From assembly GCA_000091205.1 (NCBI GenBank), contig AP006498.2: a DNA stretch of 64,000 nt. One strand, given 5' to 3'. Below the pieces are notes generated by a model. That model had not been told where the DNA came from. It did not search any database and worked only from the letters and a program-made list of their open reading frames with translations. Of this stretch, positions 1,736 through 52,804 are shown piece after piece (position 1 is the first letter of the stretch; the number at the start of each line of letters is the position of its first letter). A program made the translations under genes and the position numbers. This DNA comes from Cyanidioschyzon merolae (Eukaryota).

Positions 1736-3220
1736 ACATGGTCGTGGGACGTTTTTGTTCCACTGACAGGTGCGTTCGAGTTACATAGAACTGAACAGAT
1801 CCACGGACAAAGACGTATGCACTAATATTTCGGCTTCTTTAAACGACGCTGGTCTCTCCTTTCTCTCCGGCGCTGTTCATAGCAGTCGCACGATATTGGC
1901 GGTGGTGGTGTTCAGGCCCCGATTCCATAGCTGCCGACTCTTGTCTAGGCATTCCATGCACTGCCAAAAGTTGCCATCTTCGCTTCGCTTGCCATGTGCA
2001 CCTTCTCTCCACTCTGTTGCGGTGCGCCCGTCGCAGCGTTGCCGCTTGGCTGTGGTCTGGCGGTCACATGCCACCAGCATACTTCGTCATCTGACGGCTA
2101 GTCGCTGACACGTGAACGCTCGCGTCGACGCTCCGTAACTGTGTGTGGCGGGTCCAGAAGCCTCACCTCAGTGCCCTGCTCCGTTCTCGCACCAGCTGCC
2201 GTAACCTACGCTCACGGGCTTCTGCTGGGCGATCGCCTCGGCGAGAGCGCTCCCCGCAGCACACGCCTGCGCATGCTGCTCCCTTCTCTAGACGACTCGT
2301 CGAAGGCGATGCTCTCCAGACAGGAACAGGTACCGCAACGAACCTCCCAGGCCGGCGTGCACGTCGTGAACTCTCGATCTGTCTTCGCTCGCTTCGCGCA
2401 AAGCAGTGACGCACACTCTACTCAAAGTCATCGCAGCGATGAGTAAAGCCCGGGTCCAAGACCCCTTTCCATGCGCAGAGAAGAGACGGGCGCCTCTGAG
2501 CGCATGTTCCGGGAACTGCACCATACTGCCAATGAGTGCCGCTCCGTCGATAGCCCCACATAGAGGTGCCATTGCCTCTCAAGCGAAACTGCCTGTTCGC
2601 AGTGATAAGCTGCGTGACGTTTCAGCGAGAGTCTGTGAACGAGTCGTCACGGCCTCAACCCAGGTATTTTTCGTCGTTCATCCAGCGACGTGAAGTGCTG
2701 CACCCGAGTGTCGTCTTGAAGCAGAGGCATCGAACCTTGGCGCATGCGAGTGATTCGTGCACGCTACACTTAGGAATATGAGAAGCGCAGAGGCTTGTAC
2801 ACATGTCGTGGAAGAAGATGCCTTTTATGTGATGAATCCTTGCTCGTGGGTGCCGCGCATCATTCAAATGACGGTGACGTGACGAATGCGAGCGGCAGAG
2901 GGTCTACAAAGCAACTCCGGATGTGCGACCCTGATTCCTACAGCTACTTCCCAGTCCATGAGCCCGCACTGTTGCACTTTGCATCTACAGGCTGGAGATC
3001 TAAAACAATTGCGGAAAAATCTCAAGCCAGGAACTGCGCGAGCAGCTCTGTATTGCATTGATTCTAACACTGGCGCTGCATCAGGTGCCGCCGCTGTTTC
3101 TCTGCAAAGCTCTGCCGTGCGCTCTCTCTCGCTTTCTCTCTCTACAACCTCCTCTCCGCGCCCTTGGCCAAAACACGTGAACAGAGTGCTGGATGTCGAG
3201 CATAACGCCCCGTTGCGCAG

Positions 3221-11676: not shown

Positions 11677-13395
11677 CTTATGTGTATGCTTTGAAACAAC
11701 ATCCCCAGGATGCATGATGGAGATCGATAGCCAGCTGCAGGACCTCAGTTCCCTTTGAAATGCTAAAACATTTCGTTAACTCCATGTTCAACTAGCCGTC
11801 TGGGACAGAGTCTTGATCCGATGAGCCCCTCGTGTATCGAACCTACCATGAGCACCGGCTGTGAAGCTAGATGCTTCGCCAGCGCAATTGTTTCCTCGAG
11901 ACAGAACAGCTCGGCTATACCTTTGCGGGTGTCGGCTCCAGTGCGCTGCTGCTCCCGCTGACGTGATGCGCAGCTACGGAAAAGCGATGTAGAGGCAGCC
12001 CCGATGACCGGGAGCGTTTGCCCATATGCGGAAACCTGGCTCAATGCCATCATCCCGCCCGACACACAAGCGGTATTACGCTTCCTGCTGCGCAGAGCAG
12101 TTCCGATGCAGCCAGCTGCTGGGAGTCTCTCCACGAGCATATTCGAGAACAGTTACGGAAAATTCATGAAAGACGCTCGATGAAGTGGAATATGGCTGTG
12201 AGCATGGCAGCAGTCAAACGCCAGAAGGCAAACGTGCCAGAATCCAACATAGAGAAGCGCGCTCAACAGTCTTTGCGTACAGCCCCGCTCCCATCTCTTG
12301 TCGCTGCTCATGCATGGCGTACGACGGGGTTGCGACGGTGCGCACCGAACTCCATCCAGCATGGTGGAACTGAGCGAGACATTTGGCAGCAGATGCACCT
12401 TCAGTTAGGTAAGCAGAGAAACAGACAGAGCCCGCCATTGACCGCGCTAGAAGATTCAGAAGTAGCTTGAAGAAGCTGCTCCGTCATCCCAGTTGCTTCT
12501 GTTTCCAACACAACAGGTCATACGCTCGCTCAGTGGAATCGCCATGAGGCACCTGTCCGCAGTGATCATTCTCTCCAGCTGCAAAGGACTCGGAGCACGC
12601 CAATTCTGTGCTTTCCCGAGATGGCAGCACAGCGTTCGGGATCACCGTTATCTGGATGACCCAGATCGTACGAGCATTGATGCCAGAGGAGGTCGACGGG
12701 TGGACTGTGCGTTCACTGCAGCCTTCGATCCGTCTGTTGACGTTTAGAAACGGACGTCGTCTGCCCAAGCACTCACGGCGGAGCACCTGCACCGAAGCTA
12801 CGGCACCCAATAAGTTGCATGCTGCCCTTTCCCGCCCGTCCGTCCGCGAATGCACGCTGCCAATGTTTTTCGTTTCAAAGAACGTTTACACTAACCAGTG
12901 ATACCCGACTGCAAGCTCGATATCAGCGATCGGAGAAGCGTTTGTCGTCCCGCCGACCTTCAGGCTCCATGACTTGCACTTCACCTCCGAGATACTGGAC
13001 ATTTATCACGCTGCCGATACGCGCAGTCGAGCAGGTTGCCGCAACGCTGTGTATGTTGACTCGGCGAAGGGGGCGGACGGGCGGCTGTCTCACTCAGAGG
13101 CAGCGCCCCGGACTCTGCATCATAACCTCTTTCTGTGTTCCGAACAACCCGAGACCTGCATACTCCACCAAAGCTCGGTTCTCCCAAATAGAACCACTTT
13201 GCATCCATACACCTAGATCGGGATAGATGTTTCGTCTTGCACTCAATACGCTAGCACCTATGTCAGAATGAATACGAACTGGATTACGAACTCGGGCGTA
13301 CTCTATAAAGCTTAAACCTCTTCCCGTTACCGCCAGCATCAGCCTTTGCGAATTTTTCCTGCAATTGCTTTTTCCTTGCATGTTATCTTCAGCTT

Positions 13396-14030
13396 TCAGT
13401 AGCTACGCTCTCGTGCCCATCTAGCTCCATTGTCAGCGGTCGATGGATGCCCATTGCAACGTGAAACTCCCGATTCCGCCGCTTCTGGTTGTATGCTATT
13501 CATGTCATGGACTGGAAAAAGGTTGCGGTCTACGCTTCGCTTGCTATTTCCATCTTCATCGCAACCAGCTTCGGTGCGTCTTTTGCAGCCGTGATACTTG
13601 GCTGTGGTCAGGTGTTCGCATATATCCACGATTTTTCCTCCTCCGGGAGCTGCTTACTTGCACATGAACGTTTGCTTCATCGCTCGGTTCATGCACTTGA
13701 CGGGTACAGCAGCCTCAACACAAGGCCCTGGTCCTTTTGCGCACCAGTACCCATATCCACTTATCACGAGCTTCTTCTGGGCAAGCCTTTTGGTGAGGTC
13801 CATATCTGCTGCATGCGCAAGGGTACGCTGTTCCATTCGATACAGAATTTGTGGAACGCGATTTTGTTCATGATGAAAAGAAAACCAGAAGGGATATTCA
13901 GACAGGCGAACAAGTCTAGACACTTAGATACGCCCATGCTGCTTTGGAGCAAAGCAGTGACACGCTCTCCGCTGGAAACCATCACCGCGATGATGGAGGT
14001 CCGAGTCCGATACCCTTTTCCATGAACACA
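13396..14030 (-). mobile_element. C-family relic (diverged TnpB-like remnant?)
   Basis: Minus ORF 13654-13923 reads ...ILYRMEQRTLAHAA...VPVKCMNRAMKQTFM, followed by Cys-rich CEHLTTAKYHGCKRRTEAGCDEDG (13396-13629). It is homologous to 22755-23111, 33278-33965, 43500-44110, 48100-48600 and 51335-51945. Confidence 0.45.
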
Positions 14031-14686
14031 GAAACGAAGGCAGCCTCTGGGAATGTATCCCGTGATATGTATCACGCTGCAGTGGAATCATATTTCTTGG
14101 ACGGCGACGATGAGAGGAAGTTTCTCTTTCGAACGGAGTCGATGATTGCACATGAGAAAATCAGGGAACTTTCTGCATGAACTTGTGGAGAAGCCTTCAT
14201 GGGCTGATGTCGAGCTTTTTCCCTCGTCAATCCACCGGCGTGAATCACGGCGCCTGCGAGTCCCTCTGAGGCAAAAACATTGAGATTTTGAAGAATGCAC
14301 GATCCGGCCATGCATCAGGGAAGGAAAAACAATGCGGAGCTCCTTGTACGCATGTCCTGGATAATTATATTGGTTATTTTACGAACCCGGTGTTCGACGG
14401 CATCGCGAATTATCCTGATGAAGATGCCGTGACGAATTCTAGCGCCAACGGGCCGAGGTAGTTTCTCAGAAAACGCGACCACGCATCCTAAACCTACGGA
14501 TGAATCGGCAAGCCCCAAGTGCTGCACTTCGAGTCTCGAACCTGCAGATATAAAAAACAGTTCGGAAAAATCGAAAGACAGGAATAGAACGAAAAAACTG
14601 TGTTCTATTTTAATCTGAAATTGGTGCAGCTCTTTTGAACGCCTGGACGGTCCCGAATACCTGTAGCGTGCCCAAAAGAAGCACTT

Positions 14687-21985: not shown

Positions 21986-22754
21986 CTATGGTCCTGGGAT
22001 ATTTTCTGTTTCACGGATCACATGTATACAGCGACTAGTTCAGATGCCGATCGGCGTCCTGTCCAACGCTAACTACACCAGTTCCAGGATAAAATGTGAC
22101 ATGGAACTATTCGCTCTGTTTCTGTCTTGCGATTTCAACCGAACTATTTTAGATGTCCAGGCTCTGCGTTCGTAGTCTGGCAATAAGCGCTTACGGATTC
22201 ATACGCAGTTTTTGGGATTTTCGGTCGACCATCCGCAGTGGCTCCATCGATGTCGTGGCGCTGGAATTCGTTACGCCACAGGATTCAAGATCATTCGCTA
22301 CGCCCTCGAACAGGGATTTGTAAAATAACCTGTATTATAATCCAATGGATAAGCAGAAGCCTTGACTCTTCTCTCCCAGTTGCGTACAGCATGCTCAAAT
22401 CAAAAGACTTTAGCATTTTTGGATCTTTCAGTGCCAATGGAACTCGTGAGTGCAGCAGTTCGCCCCACTGGATAAACGAGGAAAAGAGTGCAACGTTGTC
22501 GTCGACTATGGGCTTGTTCACAAACTCATATCAAATGCATACGGACATTTTCACGTCATAGATACGATTGCGTTCAAAAGAAATATCGTTTTCCCTTAAT
22601 GTCCATCGACGAGACGGGATTCGACAGCAGCATGAACGCGTTCAGAAAAAATCTGCCCCGAGAGCATCCGCCGCTTTTTATGTATGGGAAAGGACCAGGA
22701 ACCGGGACTTGAGTCGTCAAAGCGATTACATTCAGTGGATAGTTCGTCAGCGCT

Positions 22755-23330
22755 TTGCACGAAGGGCGCGAAGCCGGATCAAGATTTCACGATTACCTCT
22801 TTGACCTGAGTTTTAGTTTTTGGTACCGTTTTCGTCGTCGACGACAGCGCGTTCTAGTATCCCTCTATCAAATGGAGCAGCGTACGCTTATATATGCTGC
22901 GGAGAGAGTCCGCACCGAGGGGACCTCTTTGAGGAAAACGCGTGGTCATAGGATATCCGCTGGACGCATAAACGGGAACGAGCACCGTTCAGTGCCGTCT
23001 GTACCCGCCAAGGGCATGAACCGAGCGATAAAGCAAGCATTCATGCGCGACTGGGCGGCGCTTGGGGGAGAAGATCTAAAGGGTGCAGAGTTATACCTGA
23101 CCAGTATCTAGTGTAACCGCTGCGCGGGGCGCACAGAAACTGTATACAAAGAGAATGAAAATCACAAGCGAAGCGTAGATCGCAATGATCGTCTGTCAAA
23201 GAAGTACATCGACAGCATCCGAAAGCAGCGGAGTCAGATCCCTAAAGCTACCATCGACATCCTCCGACTGCTGGCAAGAGAACCGGAGGGAAAAAAGTGA
23301 CCAGCATATTCAAAGCCAGCACGTAAGGGA
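22755..23330 (+). mobile_element. C-family relic, plus orientation
   Basis: ORF 22755-23111 reads ...LYQMEQRTLIYAA...VPAKGMNRAIKQAFM. The downstream frame reads CNRCAGR...RSVDRNDR, a CxxC followed by a degenerate D-R-N stretch. Confidence 0.4.
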
Positions 23331-24109
23331 GAGGATAAGGAAGCAGATGCAGGAATTGCCGCCAGAGGCTGATTTTGGTGCTCATGGTAAGGGACGCAAG
23401 CTTTGCAGTGTACATACGTTTCAGGGGACACGCCCTGTTTTCTCTGACACTCTAGCGCACAACCTGAATATTGGGCGCGTACCGCCTGACGCCTATCGGT
23501 GGTTCACGCTTTCTCGAAGAGAGCAGCAGTGAGGCATGCAAGAAACCGCTCTAGCCTGATCTGCTCTGTACCCGTTCACGTTGATATTCGTAGAGTGCGG
23601 GCGTCAGCAGTGCAACACGACTCCACGAATGACTGGACTCGAAAGTATGCGCGGCAGCGATGGGGTTCATATCCCGATGATGCGCAGCGATGACTACTTC
23701 GGAAGTGTGTAGTTCCATCCATCGATCCGCTCGCTAGAAAATCCGATACTAGTTCAACTGCCGTGTGCGTAGCATTGCGAGCACCCTTGTGCCTGTCGAC
23801 AAAGTACTCTACTCTTCAGGACACTTTTCTTCATATTGAGGCCCGGAGCGCAAGCGTCCTCATCCTTCTCCTGTTTTACAGAAAAGCACCGCGCTTACTG
23901 CTTCGGCATGATCTCGAAATGGGTTCAGCAAAACGCCCCCTAGAGCGAAACATTTATCCGAGTACGCGTCTATGGAGACACGACGCCATCTGGGGTATCA
24001 CCGACGCGGTTTGGTAAACAAAAGCGTAGCCACTGCGGGCTACACGACCTGCACCTTGTTCTGAACGCGAACTCTTGGACGCGCATCAACTAACGCCGTA
24101 CATTGCCAG

Positions 24110-33016: not shown

Positions 33017-33277
33017 ATGAAGCTTTGGACGAGCTCACGAGTCGGTAGCTCGCATCCATGTATTCTGGCTTTCTCCGAGACTCTGAAAAGCTATGACACC
33101 CCCTTCACAATAGAAGAGGACACATCCTCCAACGCAGGCGTACAGAATACCATTTGTATCTCTTCAGATTTTCATCAAGATCAGCCTTTGTGCGCTGTTT
33201 CTGCGACTGCATTGATTTCCTCCCTCTTTTCTCCGGCTTTAAATAAGCAGCGCTTTCCTTCCCATCAAGTTCCGTTT

Positions 33278-33965
33278 TCAGCAGCTGGGGGATGCTGATG
33301 GACGCATGAATGTACAATAGGCACCGTTCACGGCTGGTGTCGACCCATCGGATGCACAGACCGAAGTTGCGATCCTCGCTTTGCGAACCATTTTCTTCTT
33401 CTTTGTATGTAGCCTCAATGCGCCGCTGGCAGTTGTGATACGTGGCCGCTGTTCAGTATTCTGATACGCCCACAGCATCTTCACCGCCAAGCACCACCCT
33501 GTGATGCATGAACGCCTGCGTCATCGCTCAGTACACAACCATGATGGGTATAGATGGCTGGCATCGACGCGCTCCTCCGTTCATGCGACTGCTACCACAC
33601 ACTACGATCATGGAGTTCTTCTGGGCAAACTGCTATACGTGGACGGTGCCCGCTATACGCGCCAGCGTGCGCTGTTCCACATGATGGAAGATTTCCCGAA
33701 AGATATGGTGACTATGATAAAACATGTTCCTGAAGGAATATCGAGACTCAGGGACAAATCTAGATTTTTCGATCCCACTACGCTCGCTTCGTGCAAAGCG
33801 GTGAAGCGCTTTCCATTGGTAGCGATCCCTGCGGTAAGTAAAATGCGATTCGAACACCCTTTCCCATACAGTCAGAACACAAGTGACTCGAGTCTCTGCG
33901 AGCATATCCAGTGCGAGGTATCAGGCTGTAGCTGGATACCGCTTTCGTTGATGTCCACAAAGTGA
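33278..33965 (-). mobile_element. C-family relic
   Basis: Minus ORF 33633-33905 reads ...HHVEQRTLARIAGT. 33290-33380 aligns at the DNA level with the RuvC-III-like 43520-43620 segment, but here it is degenerate (IHASISI versus FNAGINI). Confidence 0.4.
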
Positions 33966-35496
33966 GGAAGATTTGTATTTCGAATTGAATCGATTACTTC
34001 ATGAGACAATTTCAATCGAATTTCAACATTGGCGTGTGAAGCACTCGTCAAGGGACGCAGTGGAGTTTCTTTCTCGTCAATAAAATGCTAACCATCGATG
34101 CGCCCGGTGTTCACTTTGAAACGGAAAGATCTAGGACTAGAAAGAAGCGTAGTTGAAGCATGCTGCACGTAAGGAATCGAGAAGAGTAGATGCTTGAACG
34201 TATAAACTGGATAAAGGTATCTTTTATTTTTATCAAACCTTCTTGAAGAATGTCGTGAATCAAATGCATTCCTGCGATGTATCGAATACCAGCGCGAAAA
34301 AGAATCGAAAGCGCCACTCCAGAAAGTCTCCTGAAAATCCTGAAACTCTACTCATGAGTCCGTGAAACCGTATTCGTGCAATTTAAATTTCGATGATGTG
34401 TATCAAGAAAATTTAGCACATTTTCTCAAGCCAGGCACAGAGCGAGCAGTTCGGTGTTCCATATTAGTCTGACACAGATGCAGGACACCGTTCTGCATCT
34501 GCGCTCGCAGTGCACGCATTCGTCGAATCCGAGGTCATCGATGCAACAAAAGTATCATTTCTCTGCTTTGGTGCACATGGTGATCGTTCAGGATGATGAA
34601 GATCTGTATGTCTATGCCATCGAAGCGGCAAAAGTAGCATTCTTCTGTTTTGATGCTCTCGGTGATCGTTCAGCTTCCCAGAAGTCTATACTCCGAGACC
34701 ATCGACGCGGCCAACGTCTCACTACTCTTCCACAGTGGACAGGGTTATTCATCAGCTTCCTGGAGATGCACATGGCAAGTGTACTGCAGCGGTGAACCGA
34801 TCATCCCTGTTCCTTGGTGCAAAGCGGGGTCATTAAGGTTCCGTCAGACGCATATCCAGAGGAAGCGGCGGTGGCGGGACAGTCGCCAAGCACGCTGTCG
34901 GAGCGACCAACAGAGACGCACACAGAACGACAGCTGCTTTTGCGTTCGTAAGCACCATGGATGCAAATGCATCCAAAACCGCATGCGTCGTGGACGTGGT
35001 ACCACGCATCCCGTGTACTGTGTTCGTGCCCCAGAGGATGCTGTGCAGTAGTCTACCTGGACTGCCACAAAGAGGTGCGCACCACGTTCCTGTTCACTGC
35101 AAGAGCTCAGCTGTAGAAGTGCCTATGCGCCTCAGGGCAAACGTTTTTTCCAGAGGTCGCTGGGTTTTCTGGTCTCGGTGGAATGCTCGTGCATCTTACA
35201 TAGTCTGTACGCAACACGCATTCAACTGTTCGCGAACGTTCGACGCTACACAATAGATGTACACTTCATGCGCAATGCCGTATACTCAGGTTTTTTTTTG
35301 TGCCGGCAAATCTTACCAGGGCCGCTGCAGTTCCCCTCAGAGCGTCCCGCGACACGCTCATACGTGACCTTGACCGCCGACGTCGCTGCGTGAGCGTTTT
35401 CGTGCCATTGAGAGCGTGCGTCTCTGTCTGCGGCTAGACTTGTGAACTGCGCTGCGGACAACAACAGCCCCATGACTTTATGTACAGATTGTATGC

Positions 35497-38228: not shown

Positions 38229-39464
38229 ATGATCGGCTTCGTTGGTTCTGTTAGCTCTCTCGGCGCTCGTGTTTCATCCTTCACAGCAAGCTGTAGTGCA
38301 AGCAACAGCTGCTCGGTCGTAGCTGCTCCCCGACGGGCGTTCGACCTCCGCGCGGCTGAGGAGAAGCCACAAACCAGCAGTTCGAGTGCAGCGGGATCGT
38401 CTTCTGCTTCGAGTAGTGGCGCGGGATCATCGGAGCGTGCGGCGCCATCAGCAGTGTCGTCACCCCCTGCGGCGGCGACGTCCACGCAAAGCGGGGCAGC
38501 GAAGATGCCCACGATGACTGCACTGAAGACGGCAGCAAATAGGAAGTTGGGTGAGGTTACACAGGCTCGCTTGCGCAAGGTCGGAGACTCCGTCACCCCA
38601 AGTTATCGCCAGATCGATAGCTTCCGTGTTCCAGCGTATCCGATACCCGGGAAAGATGACGAAGTGTCTCGCCGCACGGAGCGTATGTACATGATCCTGC
38701 GCCAGATCTTTGGATACGGTCACCTCTTCGAGCGAGACGGTGAGGAAATGGATAAGCTCCAGAGTTGCTATATCAATGGTGAGCTGAGCACGAAGGATTT
38801 CGTGAGAGCCGTCGCCAAGTCGGAAACATACAAGGAAAAGTTTTGGAACAACCGGCCGCCGTTCGGACGCTACGGCGCGGTGGAGCTCGCCTACAAGCAT
38901 CTGCTTGGCCGCCGCACCTTCGACGCGAAGGAGAACGCAGCTGCGCAAGCGGTGTACCACGCACACGGCTACGACGCAATGATCGATTATATTATCGACA
39001 ACGAGTATGATCGGGCGTTTCCGTTCCGCAACGACGGCAGCGACAACGTGCCGCACTGGCGTGAACCAGCTTGGTTCATGGGACGCCGCCCCGAACCCCA
39101 GGCACTACGTGGCGGTCTCGAGCGCGCGATGAGCGGTGCCCGTGGTGCGATGCTCTACCAGTACCGCGTCCGCCTCGGCTCCCAGAATATGGGCGTTGTG
39201 GCTGGAGGCTGTCCGCCGCCCGTGAACCTCAAGAACAAGACCGACGAGCCGGTGTTCCGTGTGGTCACGGCCGGGTATCGCGAGCCGGCAGTGAACAGCG
39301 GCGGGCTGGGCTACTCCGTGGGCAGGTCCTACACGCGCCAGAACAAGTACAGCACCGTGGCGCGCTCACAGCGCACGTATCTAGTGCCACTGAGCGAGCT
39401 GAACAACACCATCACTCGCATTCACCGCTCGGGAGGCTACATCCGCACAGTGGAGCGAGCGTAA
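38229..39464 (+). CDS. phycobilisome rod linker polypeptide (PBS-linker domain plus C-terminal CpcD-like domain), nuclear-encoded with Ser/Ala-rich transit peptide
   Basis: The PBS-linker core spans MYMILRQIFGYGHLFERDGEEMDKLQSCYINGELSTKDFVRAVAKSETYKEKFWNNRPPFGRYGAVELAYKHLLGRRTFDAKENAAAQAVYHAHGYDAMIDYIIDNEYDRAFPF. The C-terminus YRVRLGSQNMGVVAGG...RTYLVPLSELNNTITRIHRSGGYIRTVE is CpcD-like. The N-terminal 90 aa are Ser/Ala-rich with Phe at position 4. Confidence 0.75.
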   Translation: MIGFVGSVSSLGARVSSFTASCSASNSCSVVAAPRRAFDLRAAEEKPQTSSSSAAGSSSASSSGAGSSERAAPSAVSSPPAAATSTQSGAAKMPTMTALKTAANRKLGEVTQARLRKVGDSVTPSYRQIDSFRVPAYPIPGKDDEVSRRTERMYMILRQIFGYGHLFERDGEEMDKLQSCYINGELSTKDFVRAVAKSETYKEKFWNNRPPFGRYGAVELAYKHLLGRRTFDAKENAAAQAVYHAHGYDAMIDYIIDNEYDRAFPFRNDGSDNVPHWREPAWFMGRRPEPQALRGGLERAMSGARGAMLYQYRVRLGSQNMGVVAGGCPPPVNLKNKTDEPVFRVVTAGYREPAVNSGGLGYSVGRSYTRQNKYSTVARSQRTYLVPLSELNNTITRIHRSGGYIRTVERA

Positions 39465-41500: not shown

Positions 41501-43437
41501 GTCTGGTTCTTCTTACAAGAGGTGAGCGTATCGAAGAAGACCTCCGCCTATCTACCTGCCTGTCTGCCAAACAAATATTGACGGAACCCAACCGCTTTCC
41601 AAACCAGGCGTGCCACAAGTCTAACAGTACTCTTCGGGCAAGTTTCCAGGTTTTGGCGCCACATCCTACGCGCTTCCGCAGGGTGCGTTTCATTCAATGC
41701 CGGTACACGGCTGCAGGCTTTCGTCGTACAGGCGGAGCTGCGTTCCCTTACTCCTCCACTTTGGAAACAACCTCTGCGTTATCAGAGAGAAAGGCTTGAA
41801 CTGCTGTGTCCTTGACGTTCATCGCGATGTTCGTTTATTTGCAGAGTTTCAGTTCTGCTCGCATGAGGCCAGTTGCAATATGCAAGGCACAATAGTGTCG
41901 GACTTGTACACTTTGTCGTTAATTATGCAGCACTGCAGGCAGGAACTCTCGCGAGAATAGTTAATGGGAGGGGGGTTGGAACTGTGAAGTGCCTCAACAC
42001 GGCATGTGCCGGTGACTCGGTTTGTCATGTTCTTCAGCAACCAGGTAGGCAGCCTCTGGGAGTCATTTTGTGCCGCTGCAAAAGAACCACCTTGCACCAG
42101 GGAAAACGTTCTTGTTTCCGTGAAACAAAAATAGGCGAATCTTAGGACAAAAGTAAAGATCGGTCTCTGTGATATAAAATCAGCCTCCGAGTTACCTGCG
42201 AGGAATGTGGAACTCGTGGAAAACAGCGGTCCTTTATGAGTGAAAGCCGTTGCATTCCACATGCAACGCTTTTCCGGTAGCGAATTCGGGTCCAGGTACC
42301 TCAATGTACATCATCGACTTGTAATTAATCAGACAGCGCTGTGGCGGCCACGTAGGATGGTAGATGCGTGCGCTCCTGTCCAGGCACGAAACTGTCAGCG
42401 CTCGCCTCTGTCTCCACGCCAGCTCACGGATGGTGCGATACCATGCTACGACTTGCATGAGATTCATGCACTGAAGAAGAGAAGCATGAGACAAGTCAAT
42501 TCGTAGTGGCATGCAGGCACAGACTCGTTCTATCACAAGCCAATGTTCCCTGTGCTGAAGCGTTCTTCAGGAGAATCAAAGTATGCCACCGCGCTACCCT
42601 GAGCGTTTTGGCTCCGTGCCTGTTCTGCCGCCTTCACCAAGCCGGGGCTCGAATCATTTCGATATCCTTCGGATGCTTGCTAGTGCGTTACGGGCATTTC
42701 CAGAGCACCGATGCGAAGCTGACTTCTGCTCCAGTGCCTCGGCATTGAAGTCTGTGCTCGCATGCGTTGACGAAGAATACACGGCGCGTTCGAAACTGAC
42801 GCGCCGTTTCCGGCCAATATCCCAGACGGACAGAGCTCTTCGCGGAGTCATTACTCTGGTGAACGCCACGCAACGCAGCTATCATGCGCCCGAAGACGGG
42901 ATTCGACCGTACCCAAGAGCGCCCCTGCCCAAGTGCGGCACACATCTCGTAAATGGATCCCATGTGATGGCCTCTTGTAGCGAAACTGCTACCGGATACG
43001 TTATCCGAGGCGAAACCTCGGCAAATGCCAAGATACACCGGCGTTTGCGACCAGTTCAACTGTCCCGGAGTGTGACTGCAAATCTTCGTAGAATATAGAG
43101 ATTCCCATCGCAACATATCTTTGTCTGGGCGGAAACGTTTGCAAAGTAGTTCTCCACGGAGCGACTCTTGGTGGGCGTTTCCCGCCACGGAGCGCAAACT
43201 GGCCCCTTGGGTGCGGCTTCCTGATGGCACTGTAGCTGCGCGACATGTGTGTGCGAACGAGTCGTTCCTGGGTACTATGATGTACGGAAACATGACAGTA
43301 ATGATTGCTTTCCCTGCATGGGGCCTCTTCGTGTTGTCGGCTCGCTTTCTGTGGCCCAGGGCTCTGCTAATTTGATGTCTGACGAAAATGGAAATCGTCC
43401 AATAAACTAACTCGGACGTACATGCGAAATTTTTGGA

Positions 43438-44780
43438 TCTTTCCGCAGTCATCAACACCAGCCTTGGCGGATTCTCTGTGACTGCTTCCATTAGATTTCT
43501 CGTAGCTACGACTTTAAATACGCCGGTCGATCACCTCCCTCAAGATCTGTCGTCAGAGCTCGACGGATATTGATGCCAGCATTAAAGTCCCGATTTCGCC
43601 GTCTCAGGCTGGTGCCAACGCATGCCATGCCCAGGCAAAAGTTGCGATCTTCGCTTTGTCTGCCATCTCCATTTTCTCTCCAGAGCAGCATCGATACGCC
43701 CTTCGCAGCAGCGACTCTTGGTAATGGTCACGCTTTTCCTGTTTGTCCAATACGCTTCCTCCTCTGAGCGCCGCCCTGTGGCGCGTGAACGCTTGCCCCA
43801 ACGCTCACAGCACATGCACGTGCTGGGTACAGAACCATCCCGCAAGTGCCGTCCTCCATCCACGCGCCCGGTACCGTACCCTGTGATCGACAGCTTATTC
43901 CGGGTAAGTCTGCGGCAGGTGCTCTGCCCGCTGAACACGAAAGCGCACGCCACTCTATTCGACAAAGGATTTGTGGATCGCGATGTTGTTCACGATGAAA
44001 CAAGTTCCGGACGGGAAACCCGCAGCAGCCAGAAGACTGAGGAGCTTCGAACAATCCACGCTACACTGGTGCAACGCGGTGACGCACTCTGCGCTGGGGG
44101 CGAGCGCTGACGTCAGTGCGAGTCCAAGACACTTCTCCGTGCAAGCAGAAGCGCTGGAGCCTCCGAGAGCCTCCGAGAGCCTCCGAAAGCCTCCGAGAGC
44201 CTCCGAAAGCCTCCGAGAGCATACCCCCAAGAGAGATATCGTGCTGTTGTCGAACCCTATTTCGTGGATGGCCACACAGAGTAGAGAATAACTCCTTCGG
44301 ACGGAATAGATCGTTCGGCGTTCGCAGTCCAGTCCGGAATCGGCACAAGCTCGCGAAGGAGTCCTCAAGGGAAGGCGTCGAGTTTTTTGGTCGCCAGTCC
44401 ATCAGAGCAGATTCCTACGCGCTCGGGTAGCCTCGAAACCAGAGAACTCTAAAAATTGAAGAATGCGTCATTTGAGCATATTACTCGTAAGGAAGGAGTA
44501 TGAGTGGCGTCTTCTGCGTATGAATTGGATGATGGTATCGGTTATTTTACGAACCCTTTTACGGGGACGTCGCGAATGACCGTGACTCTGGGGATGAAAC
44601 GCAGTCCAGCGGGAACGAGTCGAAGGGGTCATTCCGGAAAGACCACCGATGATCCTGGAGTTATATGAAAATCCCAAACCGATTGCTGCACTTTGCATGC
44701 CGAGGACGTGCAGCTAAAAGAATTTCGGGAGAATTGCAAGGCAGGAAGAGAGCGAAGAGTTCAGTGTTTCATTTGAATCT
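43438..44780. repeat. 1.3-kb direct repeat, copy A (composite of F-like RuvC-III fragment, C-family relic and minisatellite)
   Basis: Near-identical to 51274-52575, with only a handful of substitutions plus extra minisatellite units. Identical ORFs appear in both copies: 43506-43691 = 51341-51526, 43622-44110 = 51457-51945, 43582-43965 = 51417-51800. Confidence 0.85.
44157..44220 (+). repeat. 10-bp minisatellite (GCCTCCGAGA/GCCTCCGAAA), about 6 units
   Basis: gagcctccgagagcctccgagagcctccgaaagcctccgagagcctccgaaagcctccgagagc. The paralogous position 51995-52018 has only 2 units. Confidence 0.8.
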
Positions 44781-44868
44781 GGCTCGGCTGTTGTGCACTC
44801 GTCCAGAGGAGGCACCGAAATGCCTCGGAGAACGCTCGCACTGCACTCATCTTAAGGGACTCGTGGCA

Positions 44869-46935
44869 ATGGACTTCAAAGACTTGGTTGCTCTCCGTTG
44901 TGAACTTTCTGTGCAGAGTCTGACAGAAGTTTCGGCTGCACTCCGCCGCGTGATTCTGAGCAAGTCCTACTACGAGTATCAGGTAACTAGAGCGCCCCTG
45001 CGGAGTTTCCTCAACAACGGACCGCTATGGATTTTCCAGACTCTGAGCGGTGCAGGCAGCCTATGGGTATCAAACTTTTACGACACTTGCCGGGATCTCA
45101 TCGCGTCGGGAACGAGACCGGCAACAGGCACTTCCAGTTCTGCGGCGGGCGGCGCGCCAGCGAGGGCCTCACCGACCAGGGCGAGCGATAAAACAGAAAA
45201 GAAAAAGGCTCGGAGGCTGCTGGAGCTATGTCAGGCCGCACAGCCACCGGGGCTTCGCTCTTTGTGTGAACTAGAAAGGGCCCGATGCCAGGCTGCTGTG
45301 CATGCTCTCGGCCGTCTCGAGCGAGCCTTAGCAGTGTATCTTGGAAGGGCCCAGGAGGAGCTTTCTCGTCTACGAAGTTTAGTCGAGAAAGATCCTCAAA
45401 ATAGTTCTGAGTTGCGGGCACTCTTTCTCTCTTGCGACGAATTGCATCACCGTACACTAACAGCGCTGGAAGCAACCGATGTGGATGCTATCGAGGAGGC
45501 TGTTTACGCCCACTTGTTGGTCGATTCTGACGTTCTGGCTGATCTGGATCGCTGGGCTTCTATAATGAAAGAGGATGCAGAACGATTCATTACGCTCCTG
45601 CGCGATGTTCCGCGTAGATGGAACGTCTATTTGACTCTGGAAGAGCTCAGTCGCATCATGCCTGCGGCAGGACGTCAGTCCGGAAAGCGCCGCGGTCTGG
45701 GCTTCATCGAGCGATTGCAAAGGGTTTCGCTCATTTACCCATCGCACTTTGCGAGAAACTGGATACGCTACCTGTGCGGTACCCTGACCATCTTCTGGTC
45801 CTGGACGAAAATCAGCGCACATCGCGAGCATGTGATGCATATCGCACTGAGCGTACGTCAGGTTGTGAGAGGCTTCTGGGACGAGCGCATTATTACCCCG
45901 CTCACCATGATCTACAGGGAAATCTTTCAATCGTCGTATCGAACATTCATGGATCCGAAGGCGGTTCAGGCTGAGAAAGAGACCTTGAAGCGCATGGTTG
46001 TGGATTTTACCCGGGAGGCCTATGCGCGCCTCCCGGACGACCAGCGACAGGAAGCTGAACTTCTGGCTGCAAATGGTGATCTCACACCGGTCATGAAAGT
46101 CTACGAACGCCAGATTCGCAGCCCTGTGGTGAATATGCTTGCTGGTGACGTGATCAGAGCATTACTCATACAAGTCCAGAAACTCAAAGTTGATGTCGAG
46201 CAGGAGATGGTCGCTGTAGACTCCTTGGTTCGTTCGAACGAGCTCAATCTCCAGATCGCTGCTGCCGTTCCAGGCGTTCTTGGATGTTGCCTAGCGGTCG
46301 CGCTCCTGTACCGCTGGTTCAGGCGTTGGTGGTCGAGTATTCGCCTCACTGAAGTAGATCGTTTCGGAGGTGGCGGATATCTCTGGGCCAACGCCTTCGC
46401 CGAGAAGCTTCCCACCCGTGAGCGGGCCCGCCTCTTGCTACGAGATATCGAACGCTATCTGGTGTTGACGCTTTCGCTACGCGGCCCTGAAGCAGCTTCT
46501 GCGAGGCTTCAAGAGACGCCTCTGCTCCAGAAAGCACAAGTGCTCAACGGGAGAGCGCCGGCTTCGTTGGCGTCCGCTTCTCCGGAACGTGTGCAACGAG
46601 TATCAGATCGAACGCTCGCGACGTTCTTCCCTGGCGGTCTCGCTCAGGGTGAAACTGGCGAGAACCTCAAAAGCAGTGAAAATAGTGTGATTTTTCTCTC
46701 GACGGCTTGCATTGCTGAGTACGAAGACAAAGGACGTATTCTTCTCACCCTGGACGAACTGGAGGCCATGGTAACGAGCCGCGCTGGAGAGTTTGGGATC
46801 AGCCGCGGCTCTCAGCTGGAGACTCGCCTACGTGAAGATCTTTTGGACCTGAGATCATTCGCTCTCGACGCTGAACAAAAACTGCTCACAATCCTTCGAA
46901 TGCGCTCTACATATCCCTTTTTATGGGATCGCTAG
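44869..46935 (+). CDS. conserved hypothetical protein with one predicted TM helix (AAVPGVLGCCLAVALLYRWF)
   Basis: The 756-aa ORF 44665-46935 has its first 34 codons inside the 1.3-kb repeat (they are shared with ORF 52460-52675). The start was therefore placed at the Met of MDFKDLVALRCELS (44869). No family motif was recognised with confidence. A vague NCA2-like resemblance is unverified. Confidence 0.45.
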   Translation: MDFKDLVALRCELSVQSLTEVSAALRRVILSKSYYEYQVTRAPLRSFLNNGPLWIFQTLSGAGSLWVSNFYDTCRDLIASGTRPATGTSSSAAGGAPARASPTRASDKTEKKKARRLLELCQAAQPPGLRSLCELERARCQAAVHALGRLERALAVYLGRAQEELSRLRSLVEKDPQNSSELRALFLSCDELHHRTLTALEATDVDAIEEAVYAHLLVDSDVLADLDRWASIMKEDAERFITLLRDVPRRWNVYLTLEELSRIMPAAGRQSGKRRGLGFIERLQRVSLIYPSHFARNWIRYLCGTLTIFWSWTKISAHREHVMHIALSVRQVVRGFWDERIITPLTMIYREIFQSSYRTFMDPKAVQAEKETLKRMVVDFTREAYARLPDDQRQEAELLAANGDLTPVMKVYERQIRSPVVNMLAGDVIRALLIQVQKLKVDVEQEMVAVDSLVRSNELNLQIAAAVPGVLGCCLAVALLYRWFRRWWSSIRLTEVDRFGGGGYLWANAFAEKLPTRERARLLLRDIERYLVLTLSLRGPEAASARLQETPLLQKAQVLNGRAPASLASASPERVQRVSDRTLATFFPGGLAQGETGENLKSSENSVIFLSTACIAEYEDKGRILLTLDELEAMVTSRAGEFGISRGSQLETRLREDLLDLRSFALDAEQKLLTILRMRSTYPFLWDR

Positions 46936-47110: not shown

Positions 47111-48099
47111 GAGCCTGCATCTGATGCGCTCATCTCATCCATAGCGCATTGGTGAAAGACAAAGTCCTTTCTCAGAGGTATTTTTAAAAAGGCTCTTACG
47201 GATGAAAACTGTTCGTATGTGCACCGCAGTGGTGCCCATCGTTTTTTTTTTCGAGTCGGAAAGTGCTCTCGCTCTATCGCCTACCCCACCGGAACTAATA
47301 CTGCATACATCGTTGTCTCCAAAAGAAACGTTCCAGCGCTTGCCACGCAGTCTGTTGTACGTATTTCGTACAAGTGATGCATCGCGTCAACGATGGCACT
47401 CTGCCAGACTGCATTTCGTCGTTTCCAGGGCCTAGCACCCAGGGTCCGTTGAAGTGGGTCGCTGTTCGTCGCATGCAGCACGCAACCGGCATCGAAGAGA
47501 GTCACTGGAAACTACTCGAGGAGCAGTGCCTGCCTCTCGCTGCTAGATCCATTTACAGCTGTCGCAACTTGTTATGGCCATAATGTCCATGGAAACCGAA
47601 AAGCTACGGTAGGCAAGTAATATGTAACTGCATCGAATGCAGTGGTTGCAGCACCTCCATCGTAGCAGCAGTCAAACGATCATGGCGCTGCTCCTTTGGC
47701 GCATAACGCATAACGCGCGGGCGCATAGACTTGCATCTGTGTTGCCATCAATGCTCGTTTATTCCGTCGGGATTTCGAAGCGCCCACGATCGCAGTGGGA
47801 GGAGTACGAAACATGTGAAAGCACCAGATGCCGAATCAATCTCCCGTCCTCGAATTTGCACATGAAACCGTGGGATTCGTGCGTCTCCACAAGCCCTGGC
47901 TAATTTAAGATGCGCTTCTTGAGACATTTTTGATTGTGTGCCGTCTAACGCCAGCGTGGGCAACGTGAACGAGCCTCCAAGCTAGGACGCGACATTTTTG
48001 TCTTCTACACACATGCGAACATACATGGGAAAGGGTCTCGTACCGCTGGCGTACGCTCTAAAGATTGGGTCTCTCCCCATTGTAATCAACATGAGCCTT

Positions 48100-48600
48100 T
48101 GGGGGCTTCTCAGCGATTGTTTCCGCTTCCTCTCTCCTGTCCACGCCATTCGGTACACTAGTCGCTACAGTTCCGTTATCAGCTGTTGGAAGATGTGGAT
48201 GGCAGTGACAAAGACCCGATTTCGCTCCTTCTCGCTGTTGTCGACGAATGCAGTGCAGAGGCGGCAGTTACAACCTGCGCTTCTGTTGCTATTTTCAATT
48301 TTTTTGTTTACAGCCTCGGTTCGCCCTTCGCAGCAGTGGTACTTGACTGCCGTCACGTGTTCTCGTACGTCCATCTCACTTTTACCTCGAGCACCGCCTT
48401 GTGGTGCGTGACGGTTGCTTCATCACTCAGAACATGCCGTGGGCTGGTACGGAGGACTCCCCATAATGTCCTTCTCCGTTTCCGCACCTGGTCCCGTACC
48501 TAACGATTACGGACTCCTTCTGGGCGGTACAAACGGCGAGTGCTCTGTTCCCTGCACATGCGAGCGCATCCTGTTCCATTCGATAGTTGATGTTTAGAAA
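48100..48600 (-). mobile_element. C-family relic
   Basis: Plus ORFs 48186-48503 and 48415-48597 share H.R..HRSVH..DGY...LLGK...LFH-type frames with the other C copies. Minus ORF 48165-48374 is Cys-rich (KYHCCEGRTEA...SAGCNCRLC). Confidence 0.4.
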
Positions 48601-49406
48601 GAGACGTTGTCCATAATGAACCGAGTGAAGGAAAAATATTTCAGGCCGGAGATCAAGTCGGGATACTTAGATCCGTCTACGCCCTCGGCATGGGAAACGG
48701 TGACTCACGCTCCACTGGAAGCGATCGCTGGAATGCCTCGATTCCCAGTCCAGGAACTTTTCCATGGAAACAGAAAAGACGGGAATCGCTGGATCCGCAA
48801 TCGGTGAGAGGTTCATGCTGCTGCCGAATCCTGTATTTCGGATAGCCTGAAAGAGAGAAGGATTTACCTTTCGAACAGAGTCGATCATTAAATGTGACAA
48901 GTTAAGCGAAATTTCAGCATGAACTTCTTAACAAGGCCCTGATGGACGTTGTCGAGTTTTTCTCTCGCCAATCTAGCTATGCGAAGGGTTGCGACAACAA
49001 AGTTGCCTTCAAACAGCAATATGGAAAACTTGAGGAACGCATGATTTGAGCATGGAACACCTAGTGACTTGGGAAGATTGGAGGCTTGCGCGTGTGAACT
49101 GGATAATGATATCGTCTATTTTACGACCCGCCGTTCGAAGGCGTTGCGAATCATCTTAATTCGTGTGAAGTTACGAATTCCAGCAGCAAATAGTCGAAGA
49201 CGCCATTCCGAAGACACAACCGAGAATTCTAAAATCTACATATGAACCAGTAAGTCCTCACAGCTGTACTTTAAAATGTCGATGCTTAACGTCTAAAAAC
49301 AAGTGCGAATAAAAGTCGAAGTGCAGGAACATTGCGAGTAGTCCAGCGTTCCATTTTTAATCTGACGCAGTTGTGGAGGGACAATGAATCCCGGAGCGAC
49401 TTTGCC

Positions 49407-51191: not shown

Positions 51192-51273
51192 ATATACCAC
51201 TAAACCTATGCTCCATAAGTATGAAACGAGTCCTATCTGGACAATTCTGGTTTGCATATTCAAGTTTCTGTCC

Positions 51274-52575
51274 CTTTCCGCAGTCATCAACACCAGCCTT
51301 GGCGGATTCTCTGTGACTGCTTCCATTAGATTTCTCGTAGCTACGACTTTAAATACGCCGGTCGATCACCTCCCTCAAGATCTGTCGTCAGAGCTCGACG
51401 GATATTGATGCCAGCATTAAAGTCCCGATTTCGCCGTCTCAGGCTGGTGCCAACGCATGCCATGCCCAGGCAAAAGTTGCGATCTTCGCTTTGTCTGCCA
51501 TCTCCATTTTCTCTCCAGAGCAGCATCGATACGCCCTTCGCAGCAGCGACTCTTGGTAATGGTCACGCTTTTCCTGTTTGTCCAATACGCTTCCTCCTCT
51601 GAGCGCCGCCCTGTGGCGCGTGAACGCTTGCCCCAACGCTCACAGCACATGCACGTGCTGGGTACAGAACCATCCCGCAAGTGCCGTCCTCCATCCACGC
51701 GCCCGGTACCGTACCCTGTGATCGACAGCTTATTCCGGGTAAGTCTGCGGCAGGTGCTCTGCCCGCTGAACACGAAAGCGCACGCCACTCTATTCGACAA
51801 AGGATTTGTGGATCGCGATGTTGTTCACGATGAAACAAGTTCCGGACGGGAAACCCGCAGCAGCCAGAAGACTGAGGAGCTTCGAACAATCCACGCTACA
51901 CTGGTGCAACGCGGTGACGCACTCTGCGCTGGGGGCGAGCGCTGACGTCAGTGCGAGTCCAAAACACTTCTCCGTGCAAGCAGAAGCGCTGGAGCCTCCG
52001 AGAGCCTCCGAGAGCATACCCCCAAGAGAGATATCGTGCTGTTGTCGAACCCTATTTCGTGGATGGCCACACAGAGTAGAGAATAACTCCTTCGGACGGA
52101 ATAGATCGTTCGGCGTTCGCAGTCCAGTCCGGAATCGGCACAAGCTCGCGAAGGAGTCCTCAAGGGAAGGCGTCGAGTTTTTTGGTCGCCAGTCCATCAG
52201 AGCAGATTCCTGCGCGCTCGGGTAGCCTCGAAACCAGAGAACTCTAAAAATTGAAGAATGCGTCATTTGAGCATATTACTCGTAAGGAAGGAGTATGAGT
52301 GGCGTCTTCTGCGTATGAATTGGATGATGGTATCGGTTATTTTACGAACCCTTTTACGGGGACGTCGCGAATGACCGTGACTCCGGGGATGAAACGCAGT
52401 CCAGCGGGAACGAGTCGAAGGGGTCATTCCGGAAAGACCACCGATGATCCTGGAGTTATATGAAAATCCCAAACCGATTGCTGCACTTTGCATGCCGAGG
52501 ACGTGCAGCTAAAAGAATTTCGGGAGAATTGCAAGGCAGGAAGAGAGCGAAGAGTTCAGTGTTTCGTTTCAGTCT
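51274..52575. repeat. 1.3-kb direct repeat, copy B
   Basis: See copy A (43438-44780). The differences include gcaggattcctacgcgc versus gcagattcctgcgcgc and fewer minisatellite units. Confidence 0.85.
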
Positions 52576-52804
52576 GAAGGTTGTAAAGTGCGATTGGTCA
52601 ACGATACTTGCACTGCCCATCAAGAGAGTTTTACGGATCATCGTTTCCCCACCGCTGCCAAAAATTTGCAACTAAGCATTGCGAGCTGGATCATGTTCTA
52701 CATCGTGTAAAATCGATCCGCACTTGTCCAACAGAGGCATTCGTCCGTGCCCCTGAACGAAAGCCTCGCCTGGAATTCTCAACGTGAAGGTTCTCCCGTC
52801 CGTG

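Follow-up and report, generated by a model that had tools for sequence, protein, structure and literature searches.

Within the 64-kb stretch of DNA analysed here, referred to throughout as the window, an nhmmer profile search identified seven copies of a dispersed repeat, family C, with E-values of 0 to 2e-295. From terminal repeat to terminal repeat the unit measures about 1.37–1.42 kb, and the seven copies combined occupy 15% of the window. As exemplified by copy c43 (Table 1), each unit reads as the greater part of a transposase followed by the end of a Fanzor1 nuclease. The profile match of c43 spanned 43397–44793; the ends given in the table were set by aligning the 5' ends with the reverse-complemented 3' ends.

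Table 1. Copies of family C in the window and parts of copy c43
Feature	Position	Strand	Basis or remark
Copy c43	43373..44790	-	1418 bp; both terminal repeats present; includes microsatellite expansion
Copy c51	51203..52583	-	Profile search and terminal-repeat ends
Copy c13	13255..14626	-	Profile search, tblastn and terminal-repeat ends
Copy c33	33097..34480	-	Profile search, tblastn and terminal-repeat ends
Copy c48	48008..49373	-	Profile search, tblastn and terminal-repeat ends
Copy c22	22076..23455	+	Sole copy with coding sense on the plus strand
Copy c01	1767..3075	-	Seventh copy; profile search, tblastn and terminal-repeat ends
c43, 5' terminal inverted repeat	44764..44790	-	14 ends aligned
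c43, transposase relic	43967..44690	-	HTH and DDE_3 core to second catalytic Asp motif
c43, deletion junction	43967..43970	-	Read from sequence and DNA alignment
c43, Fanzor1 C-terminal relic, ~150 codons	43506..43970	-	Pfam, hhalign, ORF 43506-43691
c43, 3' non-coding region	43398..43505	-	Fanzor stop codon to 3' terminal repeat
c43, 3' terminal inverted repeat	43373..43397	-	14 ends aligned

An earlier note on this DNA had described family C as a relic of TnpB-like genes present at six loci. The repeat is real, and the profile search recovered every locus that the note had listed, but the count fell short, as c01 had been missed. Likewise, the intervals of about 600 bp assigned to each locus do lie inside genuine copies, yet they represent only the 3' thirds of six units of about 1.4 kb.

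The copies are old. They diverge by 16–21% from the consensus (confident columns) and share 56–60% pairwise identity in global alignments that include the flanks. Stop codons and frameshifts interrupt all seven, leaving no intact open reading frame. Such divergence contradicts the earlier idea that both strands carry open reading frames because the copies are young. A single near-identical pair exists, c43 and c51, whose interiors are about 99.8% identical while their terminal regions have diverged. Because the near-identity is confined to the interior and stops short of both terminal repeats, it looks like the outcome of gene conversion, and recent transposition of these two copies was rejected. 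Decay of the RIP-like or CpG-driven kind was also rejected, the substitution spectrum being balanced (ts/tv ~1.1). Some copies abut relics of the CMe-1A type, and a tRNA was the sole Rfam match in the window. A contig 98.9% identical to c13 bears the JGI metagenome gene call P0001, an example of the spurious "hypothetical proteins" that gene callers have already derived from family C.

Two coding remnants and their junction

The 5' two-thirds of every copy correspond to an IS630/Tc1-mariner transposase of the DDE_3 type, with HTH, DETGF and DNIAFHKS motifs. The consensus scored 34.3 bits against Pfam DDE_3 (cut-off 28.6 bits) over profile positions 5–102 of 146, and it also matched HTH_33. In blastp it was 39% identical to residues 17–227 of the 316-residue transposase of L012 (E 1e-41), the alignment ending exactly at MDNIAFHK, and by tblastn residues 11–227 of L012_orf1 mapped to 44674–43967 in c43. 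Given an alignment of E 1e-41, it is very unlikely that the DDE_3 similarity is spurious. The catalytic triad D, D(34–35)E is incomplete. At the first Asp position the consensus has His, c22 and c01 have Asp, and the remaining copies have Asn, Gln or His, so that the ancestral state is uncertain. The second Asp motif reads DNIAFHKS in the consensus and NNIAIHKS in c43, and since homology to the transposase stops at HKS, the third catalytic residue is absent from all copies.

The 3' end of family C is derived from a TnpB/Fanzor protein. The earlier note had recognized a TnpB-like terminus and proposed a rebuilt consensus and profile searches as a check. Indeed, the last ~150 codons of the rebuilt consensus match Fanzor1, and its C-terminal 153 amino acids scored 27.7–28.8 bits on Pfam PF07282 (Cas12f1-like TNB; cut-off 26.3 bits). 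The interpretation as a relic TnpB family thus stands for the 3' module but not for the 5' two-thirds, where the transposase had been overlooked. Against profile A1, built from 38 database relatives of the Fanzor part, hhalign aligned the tail to columns 528–677 of 694 with a probability of 99.87% (E 1.9e-31). Profile A1 in turn matched solved structures of Fanzor1, namely 9cf0 (E 5e-20) and 8gkh (E 2e-14). These were reached with this profile only; phmmer searches of PDB with P0004 and P0007 returned nothing useful. Residues ~540–743 of the 763-residue L011 Fanzor align with the same part. Family C retains only the last ~22% of a Fanzor1; RuvC-I (with the Asp of GxDxGR), WED and REC were not found in any copy.

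In c43, a helix carrying the MEQRTL block is followed by a Gly-type RuvC-II strand, an alternative Glu, the zinc ribbon (TNB) and RuvC-III, after which comes the stop codon (43506–43508). All the signatures quoted previously could be located: Y(R/Q)MEQRTL..AA, VP.K.MNRA.KQ.FM and the Cys-rich stretches in frame-aware tblastn alignments, and RRRNRDFNAGINIRR in the minus-strand open reading frame 43506–43691. The suggestion that MEQRTL might mark the RuvC-II glutamate region was nevertheless wrong. The block aligns to a helix of profile A1, RMxxFRxKxxxLDRAA, which precedes the RuvC-II strand with its invariant Gly by about 30 residues. In the consensus (IIGYG ... QEHLTT) the Glu follows the Gly at a distance of 47 residues, and their counterparts in profile A1 are the invariant G228 and E270; the alternative Glu motif of Fanzors is E-x-(R/L)-T-T. 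In Fanzors, RuvC-II is known to be rearranged: Gly or Pro occupies the canonical position, and the catalytic Glu is an alternative one that lies ~45 residues downstream (Jiang et al. 2023, PMC10530073). The zinc ribbon of the consensus is (H/C)xxC ... CxCxxC; in these decayed copies the first pair survives as CNRC only in c22, the other copies having His or Gln at its first position. RuvC-III takes the form NRDFNAAINI in the consensus; c43 and c51 have NRDFNAGINI, and the motif is degenerate in the other copies.

The two halves meet at the same point in all copies: transposase matches end at residue 226–229, and matches to full-length Fanzor queries begin at residue 510 at the earliest. At this junction, DNIAFHKS / ILYRMEQRTL in the consensus, the halves lie in different reading frames, with an identical shift of frame in c13, c33 and c43. 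In c43 the last transposase codon (S of HKS) overlaps the first Fanzor codon (I of ILCRIEW, the counterpart of ILYRMEQ in the consensus).

Element ends and intact relatives

Terminal inverted repeats of ~28 bp bound the copies. They become visible only when 5' ends are aligned to reverse-complemented 3' ends, whereupon all 14 ends of the seven copies align mutually. The 5' repeat is CAGCCGAGCCAGATTCAAATGAAACAC in c43 and CACC[A/T][G/A]TGTCAGATTAAAATGGAACAC in the consensus. The intact elements L010 and L011 carry its inner motif, AAAATGGAACAC, unchanged in their own 5' terminal repeat, and the repeats of family C resemble those of L003, L004, L010 and L011. A TA dinucleotide adjoins the repeat at 7 of the 14 ends, about one being expected by chance, although the ends are decayed and the outside base is ambiguous in some copies. 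The window copies are therefore likely to have carried a TA target-site duplication, now degraded at half of the ends. TA also abuts all 3' ends of L001 and L004–L008 and both sides of L010 and L011, while the 5' end of L006 is without it. The boundary ...GGTG/TA recurs in distant relatives from other organisms.

The metagenome relatives of ~3.6 kb are laid out as TA–TIR–transposase–Fanzor1–TIR–TA. Elements L009–L012 encode a transposase and a full-length Fanzor1 (E 1e-154 to 1e-180). In L003, an independent deletion derivative, a transposase of the same kind is joined straight to the last 14 codons and the 3' UTR of the L004 Fanzor.

Downstream of the Fanzor stop codon, a block of ~30 nt, TGAAGA-ACCCAAAC-..-GA[A/G]TACGCC, has been kept in the C copies and in all related elements, from hosts with a GC content of 33–59%. 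Its GA[A/G]TACGCC part lies next to the 3' terminal repeat in the window copies, in L001 and in L003–L012; c43 holds a degenerate version, CATGTACGTCC (43414–43424). Hairpins between the 3' motif and the terminal repeat were seen by eye. RNAalifold found no consensus structure in the 3' tails of 13 elements, single-sequence folds paired TACGCC inconsistently, and six related loci gave no relevant Rfam match. The block is a candidate remnant of a Fanzor guide-RNA (fRNA) scaffold. A bolder reading takes it for the guide-RNA core itself and holds that C-like derivatives owed their spread to its retention, with transposase and RNA-guided nuclease alike supplied in trans. We consider this unlikely; were it true, family C would be the eukaryotic counterpart of the guide-RNA-bearing non-autonomous derivatives of IS200/605 elements.

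Origin of family C and comparison with known elements

With a probability that we put at roughly 85%, family C comprises seven decayed copies of a non-autonomous derivative, produced by internal deletion, of a Tc1/mariner-Fanzor composite transposon. This reading is based on the common out-of-frame junction, the terminal repeats, the likely TA duplications and the layout of the intact relatives. Fanzor1 genes within autonomous Mariner/Tc1 elements with TA duplications have been described (Bao & Jurka 2013, PMC3627910; Jiang et al. 2023, PMC10530073). The window holds no full-length parent of the C lineage, and we infer its form from relatives at 35–40% protein identity. The parent would have been an IS630/Tc1/mariner composite element of ~3.6 kb flanked by TA at both sides, consisting of a ~28-bp terminal repeat, a DDE_3 transposase (~320 aa), a Fanzor1 (~700–770 aa), the conserved 3' block and the second terminal repeat. 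A single internal deletion of ~2.1 kb would have taken out the final third of the transposase gene together with the spacer and ~530 codons from the start of the Fanzor gene, fusing DNIAFHKS to ILYRMEQRTL out of frame. The sizes agree, for 3.6 kb less the ~2.1 kb deleted and a zinc-ribbon insert of ~150 bp leaves ~1.4 kb. Because this product would have retained both terminal repeats and the entire 3' end, full-length relatives could have supplied the transposase to mobilise it in trans. Distances among the copies are roughly uniform, which suggests a single old burst of amplification, and later decay would have turned all of them into the inert relics present today.

Might family C instead consist of TnpB/Fanzor genes that decayed as a family of their own, with MEQRTL as RuvC-II and a diverged Fanzor N-terminal part upstream? 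Such an account is right about the C-terminal zinc ribbon and about RDFNAAINI, both of which are genuine. The upstream 720 bp, however, are homologous to DDE_3 transposases, which in the intact elements occupy a separate open reading frame, and neither the reach of the full-length Fanzor queries nor the position of MEQRTL upstream of the Gly-type strand fits. The part of this account that concerns the upstream region is refuted, and as a whole it is scarcely credible. Nor do we think that the halves once formed a functional fusion protein, in which the DNA-binding and partial catalytic domain of the transposase was translated together with the Fanzor C-terminus, perhaps through a programmed frameshift or in the c22/c01 subfamily. 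Programmed frameshifting does occur in some bacterial IS630-family transposases, and a +1 insertion common to c22 and c01 brings the N-terminal transposase part into the Fanzor frame. That insertion, however, destroys the DNIAFHKS motif, and the halves are out of frame in four independent copies, a relation that agrees with the homologs and is thus ancestral. All 10 full-length Fanzor relatives lacked a DDE_3 domain, and the 29 transposase relatives were at most 342 aa long and free of a TNB domain. The product would have been devoid of RuvC-I and of the third DDE residue, and every copy contains multiple stops, making a fusion protein highly improbable.

Seven copies within 64 kb, spaced at roughly 10 kb, might seem to invite another account, in which host DNA underwent segmental or tandem duplication and the terminal repeats are incidental; the c43/c51 pair does represent exchange between copies at the DNA level, and some copies adjoin CMe-1A-type relics. 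Still, homology ends at the same terminal-repeat boundaries in all copies, amid unrelated flanks, one copy is inverted, and distant relatives in other organisms share the ...GGTG/TA boundary. We therefore regard duplication as quite improbable.

What remains of family C is ordinary transposon debris for a red-alga genome, and it leaves the understanding of mechanism unchanged. About 15% of the window can nonetheless be assigned to one Tc1/mariner-derived family, which probably makes up a sizeable part of the intergenic DNA throughout this small genome. Besides the published CMe-1A, Cyanidioschyzon-like algae once hosted another, distinct Fanzor1 lineage inside a mariner-type element. For the study of a Fanzor working with a DDE transposon, L009–L012 are candidates, as they combine transposase, Fanzor, terminal repeats and the conserved 3' block.

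The closest known systems are Mariner/Tc1 elements that harbour Fanzor1, among them PUl-1 of Pythium ultimum and PGv-1 (Bao & Jurka 2013, PMC3627910); for "Fanzor1c", too, an association with autonomous Mariner/Tc1 elements has been described (Jiang et al. 2023, PMC10530073). Like the putative parent and L009–L012, these elements have terminal repeats, a TA duplication and a transposase followed by a Fanzor1 on the same strand within ~3.4–3.8 kb, and their Fanzors show the same hallmarks, namely a Gly-type RuvC-II, the RD motif, the alternative Glu and, probably, the zinc ribbon of C4 type. Family C differs in being internally deleted, chimeric, non-coding and without an intact gene, and the lineages of its transposase and its Fanzor appear only remotely related to those published.

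CMe-1A is an old Fanzor1 family of Cyanidioschyzon merolae itself (Bao & Jurka 2013, PMC3627910), and its consensus matches 27404–30717 of the window at 84–86.5%. Both families are Fanzor1-derived repeats of similar age, with copies ~80% identical to their consensus. CMe-1A and the C copies showed no similarity at the DNA level, and the Fanzor tails differ, that of family C ending in ...NILRLLTTELEGKERPAYLKP and a stop where CMe-1 runs on as ...NIRRCAVLEKRPPELTRENFVGQPLK.... Moreover, CMe-1A was reported as unclassified and lacking terminal repeats, whereas family C has terminal repeats and part of a DDE_3 transposase.

In keeping terminal repeats and subterminal regions, losing coding capacity and apparently amplifying in trans, family C resembles the MITE-like derivatives of Tc1/mariner. 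Its length of 1.4 kb exceeds that of typical MITEs, and its deletion spans two genes, which is why the relic reads as a transposase-nuclease chimera. In the bacterial TnpB-omegaRNA systems of IS200/IS605 and IS607, the RuvC and zinc-ribbon nuclease module is homologous to that of family C, and the guide RNA lies at the 3' end of the nuclease gene by the transposon end, the very position of the GA[A/G]TACGCC block. Those elements use a Y1 or serine recombinase; family C, in contrast, has a DDE transposase, terminal repeats and a likely TA duplication, and its RuvC-II glutamate is relocated, as in other Fanzors.

Copies and coding content of family C

Window self-comparison and iterated nhmmer searches identified seven copies of the repeat family C (E-values 0 to 2e-295), whose boundaries were unchanged whichever copy, with long flanks, served as the query. 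The copies, named by their kilobase position and delimited by their terminal repeats, add up to 9.6 kb (15% of the window). An earlier note had placed this family at six loci; the repeat is real, but the six intervals represent only 3' thirds of the elements and copy c01 was overlooked. The peptide motifs quoted there were all found in the frames assigned to them.

Positions of family C copies and of host features in the window
Feature	Position	Strand
Family C copy c01	1767-3075	-
Family C copy c13	13255-14626	-
Family C copy c22	22076-23455	+
Family C copy c33	33097-34480	-
Family C copy c43	43373-44790	-
Transposase-Fanzor junction in c43	43967-43970	
Family C copy c48	48008-49373	-
Family C copy c51	51203-52583	-
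tRNA-Leu(AAG) gene	6601-6685	-
Phycobilisome linker gene (PBS_linker_poly + CpcD domains)	38229-39464	+
ORF with NCA2 domain (ATP synthase regulation)	44665-46935	+

When translated on its coding strand (minus for six copies), the majority consensus matched two unrelated Pfam families, each in a different frame. One match is to the DDE_3 transposase domain (PF13358; 34.3 bits, cut-off 28.6; profile positions 5-102 of 146), preceded by a match to HTH_33 and accompanied by the IS630/Tc1-typical motifs (D/H)ETGFD and DNIAFHKS. The other is to the Cas12f1-like TNB domain (PF07282; 27.7-28.8 bits, cut-off 26.3), within a nuclease part that reads ...PVIIGYGT..GEASVPAKGMNRAMKQAFMRHRAALGGGNVVDVQEHLTTAKYH.C.GRTE...C.C..C......RRNRDFNAAINILRLLTTELEGKERPAYLKP-stop.

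Word-seeded searches with the consensus recovered four database proteins: P0001, a 175-aa 'hypothetical protein' called on a metagenome contig that shares 98.9% identity with the c13 region; P0002, a fragment from the C-terminus of a Fanzor; P0003, a DDE_3 transposase of 261 aa with 40% identity to the N-part of the consensus; and P0004, a 418-aa protein with 37% identity to its C-part that extends upstream to a GLDPGR RuvC-I motif. Exhaustive phmmer searches found 426 relatives of P0004, the full-length ones being 500-890 aa long; TNB was the sole domain, and DDE_3 absent, in all ten full-length relatives examined. In an alignment of 38 of these sequences (profile A1), D95 (RuvC-I, at least 90%), G228, E270 and D367 (RuvC-III) are invariant or nearly so, as are four cysteines (C277 and C351 invariant, C280 and C354 at least 90%). 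The profile matches the solved Fanzor1 structures 9cf0 from Parasitella parasitica (E 5e-20) and 8gkh from Spizellomyces punctatus (E 2e-14).

The consensus aligns to columns 528-677 of the 694 of A1 (probability 99.87%), and family C therefore retains no more than the final fifth of a Fanzor1. Consensus building and profile searching thus confirmed the TnpB-like tail with its RuvC-III-like terminus, although the transposase half had been missed. The idea that the MEQRTL block is the RuvC-II glutamate region did not hold: the block aligns to RMxxFRxKxxxLDRAA of A1, which precedes the RuvC-II strand. An invariant Gly sits in that strand, and the catalytic Glu of the family C Fanzor part lies in QEHLTT, 47 residues beyond the Gly. 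This layout agrees with the Fanzor active site that Jiang et al. (2023, PMC10530073) describe as 'rearranged'.

The contig that carries P0001 (L002; 2155 bp, JGI metagenome 3300054988) is 98.9% identical to window 11787-13941, which places a close relative of this alga in that sample; P0001 itself is a gene-caller annotation of a dead transposon copy. Among full-length relatives, the one nearest to the C-type Fanzor is P0005 (551 aa, 60% identity to P0004), carried on the 7.8-kb contig L006 (JGI 3300035702). Its neighbours are virus-like (RNA ligase, 2H phosphoesterase, Peptidase_S74) and include no transposase gene, a setting that fits viral spread of Fanzors.

The junction and the probable parent element

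In tblastn comparisons the transposase and Fanzor parts are out of frame, with the same offset, in c13, c33 and c43. One frame runs through both parts of c48, but the limits of the two homologies still fall at the same residues as elsewhere in the family. At the DNA level, transposase homology stops at the S of DNIAFHKS and Fanzor homology begins at the I of ILYRMEQRTL, with an overlap of about 4 bases. With full-length protein queries, transposase matches stop at residue 226-229 and Fanzor matches start at residue 510 or later in every copy. Copies c22 and c01 have in common one extra base slightly upstream of the junction, around the alignment position 'AGLNFPSG', by which the transposase N-part enters the Fanzor frame and DNIAFHKS is scrambled. 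Comparison with P0003 marks this insertion as the derived state, and it may define a subfamily.

Aligning 5' ends with reverse-complemented 3' ends revealed a terminal inverted repeat of about 28 bp, CACC[A/T][G/A]TGTCAGATTAAAATGGAACAC, matched by 14 of 14 ends. TA lies directly outside it at seven ends; chance alone predicts about one, and an ancestral TA, at the observed level of decay, about nine. Four metagenomic loci (L009-L012) each encode a 316-326-aa DDE_3 transposase and, on the same strand after a gap of about 170 bp, a 706-769-aa ORF matching A1 (E 1e-154 to 1e-180). Two of them, L010 and L011, have TA on both sides (TA-CAACCGTGAAAATTAAAATGGAACAC ... GTTCCATTTCTACTTTCTCTGGTG-TA) and terminal repeats of the same kind as family C, with an identical inner motif. 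The family C transposase part corresponds to residues 17-227 of 316 in L012 (39% identity, E 1e-41), and its Fanzor part to residues ~540-743 of 763 in L011.

An internal deletion from about transposase codon 229 to about Fanzor codon 538 would have taken some 2.1 kb off a 3.6-kb element; less a zinc-ribbon insert of about 150 bp, absent in family C, this would leave 1.4 kb, as observed. L003 illustrates such a deletion independently: its transposase ORF is directly joined to the final 14 codons plus the 3' UTR of the Fanzor in L004, with identical sequence. We therefore regard it as very likely (probability about 0.85) that the family C copies are decayed, non-autonomous chimeras derived by deletion from a composite Tc1/mariner-Fanzor1 transposon.

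L009, L010 and L011 are three independent insertions of one and the same intact transposase-Fanzor element, and in each TTC directly precedes the TA target (..TTC-TA-CAACCG); it could reflect a target or TAM preference that extends beyond TA, or be a piece of the element end.

Age of the copies and a conserved 3' block

Divergence of the copies from the consensus is 16-21% (confident columns), and the substitution spectrum is balanced. The copies are roughly equidistant from each other, which fits one old burst. The earlier note had explained ORFs on both strands by the youth of the copies, which is wrong in view of this divergence; such ORFs arise by chance at 54% GC. One pair departs from this pattern: c43 (43439-44781) and c51 (51274-52576), which lie 7.8 kb from each other, share about 99.8% identity across the interior except for a (CCTCCGAGAG)n expansion. 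Recent transposition was rejected as the cause, since the identity collapses within the element, short of both terminal repeats, and the outermost ~20-65 bp differ as much as those of any other two copies. The pattern fits recent ectopic gene conversion between old copies, or possibly an assembly artefact. The (CCTCCGAGAG/CCTCCGAAAG)n microsatellite at 44150-44210 is expanded in c43, with only about one unit in c51.

Downstream of the Fanzor stop codon and before the 3' terminal repeat lies a block of about 30 nt resembling TGAAGA-ACCCAAAC-..-GA[A/G]TACGCC. It is present in every related element (L001 and L003-L012, 33 to 59% GC), kept among elements whose proteins share only 35-60% identity, and confined to the 3' end, just inside the terminal repeat, with no 5' counterpart. 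L009-L012 have an additional small hairpin inserted within it, and degenerate versions occur in c13 (AGAGTACGCC, 13285-13305), c48 (GCGTACGCC) and c43 (ATGTACGTCC, 43414-43424). The elements end in ...(A/G)GTG-TA, except L012 (...GTGGTA-TA); the 3' end of L006 is of the usual type (...CATAGGTG-TA). RNAalifold gave no consensus structure for the 3' tails of 13 elements, single-sequence folds were inconsistent, and Rfam held no match. Guide RNAs of characterised TnpB and Fanzor systems are encoded at the corresponding 3' position, and because the block occupies that site it is a plausible candidate for a Fanzor guide-RNA (fRNA) core.

Host genes and other Fanzor relics

The window also codes for a nuclear phycobilisome linker, NCA2 and a NIF phosphatase in long, uninterrupted ORFs, an indication that the host is a red alga with few introns; the linker and tRNA-Leu(AAG) are ordinary host genes amid transposon relics. 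The ATG of the NCA2 ORF falls within the 5' end of c43 (which ends at 44790), and because its first ~40 codons read through the transposon in antisense, the true start is probably further downstream. ORF 49332-50189 likewise starts within c48.

The consensus of CMe-1A, a published Fanzor1 family of Cyanidioschyzon merolae (supplement of Bao and Jurka 2013), matches 27404-30717 nearly end to end (84-86.5%), with fragments at 1-1306, 3731-4882 and 63005-63638. This match identifies the host as C. merolae or a close relative, and the relic family called F in the earlier note is of this type. Of the alignment between C and F proposed there, the zinc ribbon and RuvC-III stood, but nothing beyond those two aligned. 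Since no similarity at the DNA level links CMe-1A to the family C copies and the two Fanzor tails diverge after NAAINI, C and F descend from separate Fanzor1 lineages.

A further repeat family, at 20502-22017 and 61532-62994, contains a complete-length DDE_3 (IS630/Tc1-like) transposase relic (LLDNVAFHHS ... PSYAPWLIPVQE) followed by a CMe-1-like Fanzor N-terminus (M.VE.PGGP.SPAAGK.RKT) and, after that, a RuvC-III tail (YRDLNAAIIIR). Bao and Jurka (2013, PMC3627910) left CMe-1A unclassified and reported no terminal repeats for it; the evidence suggests that CMe-1-type Fanzors likewise derive from a mariner-type composite element.

The identification of family C helps annotation. Fanzor1 genes within Mariner/Tc1 elements with TA duplications were already known (Bao and Jurka 2013, PMC3627910; Jiang et al. 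2023, PMC10530073).
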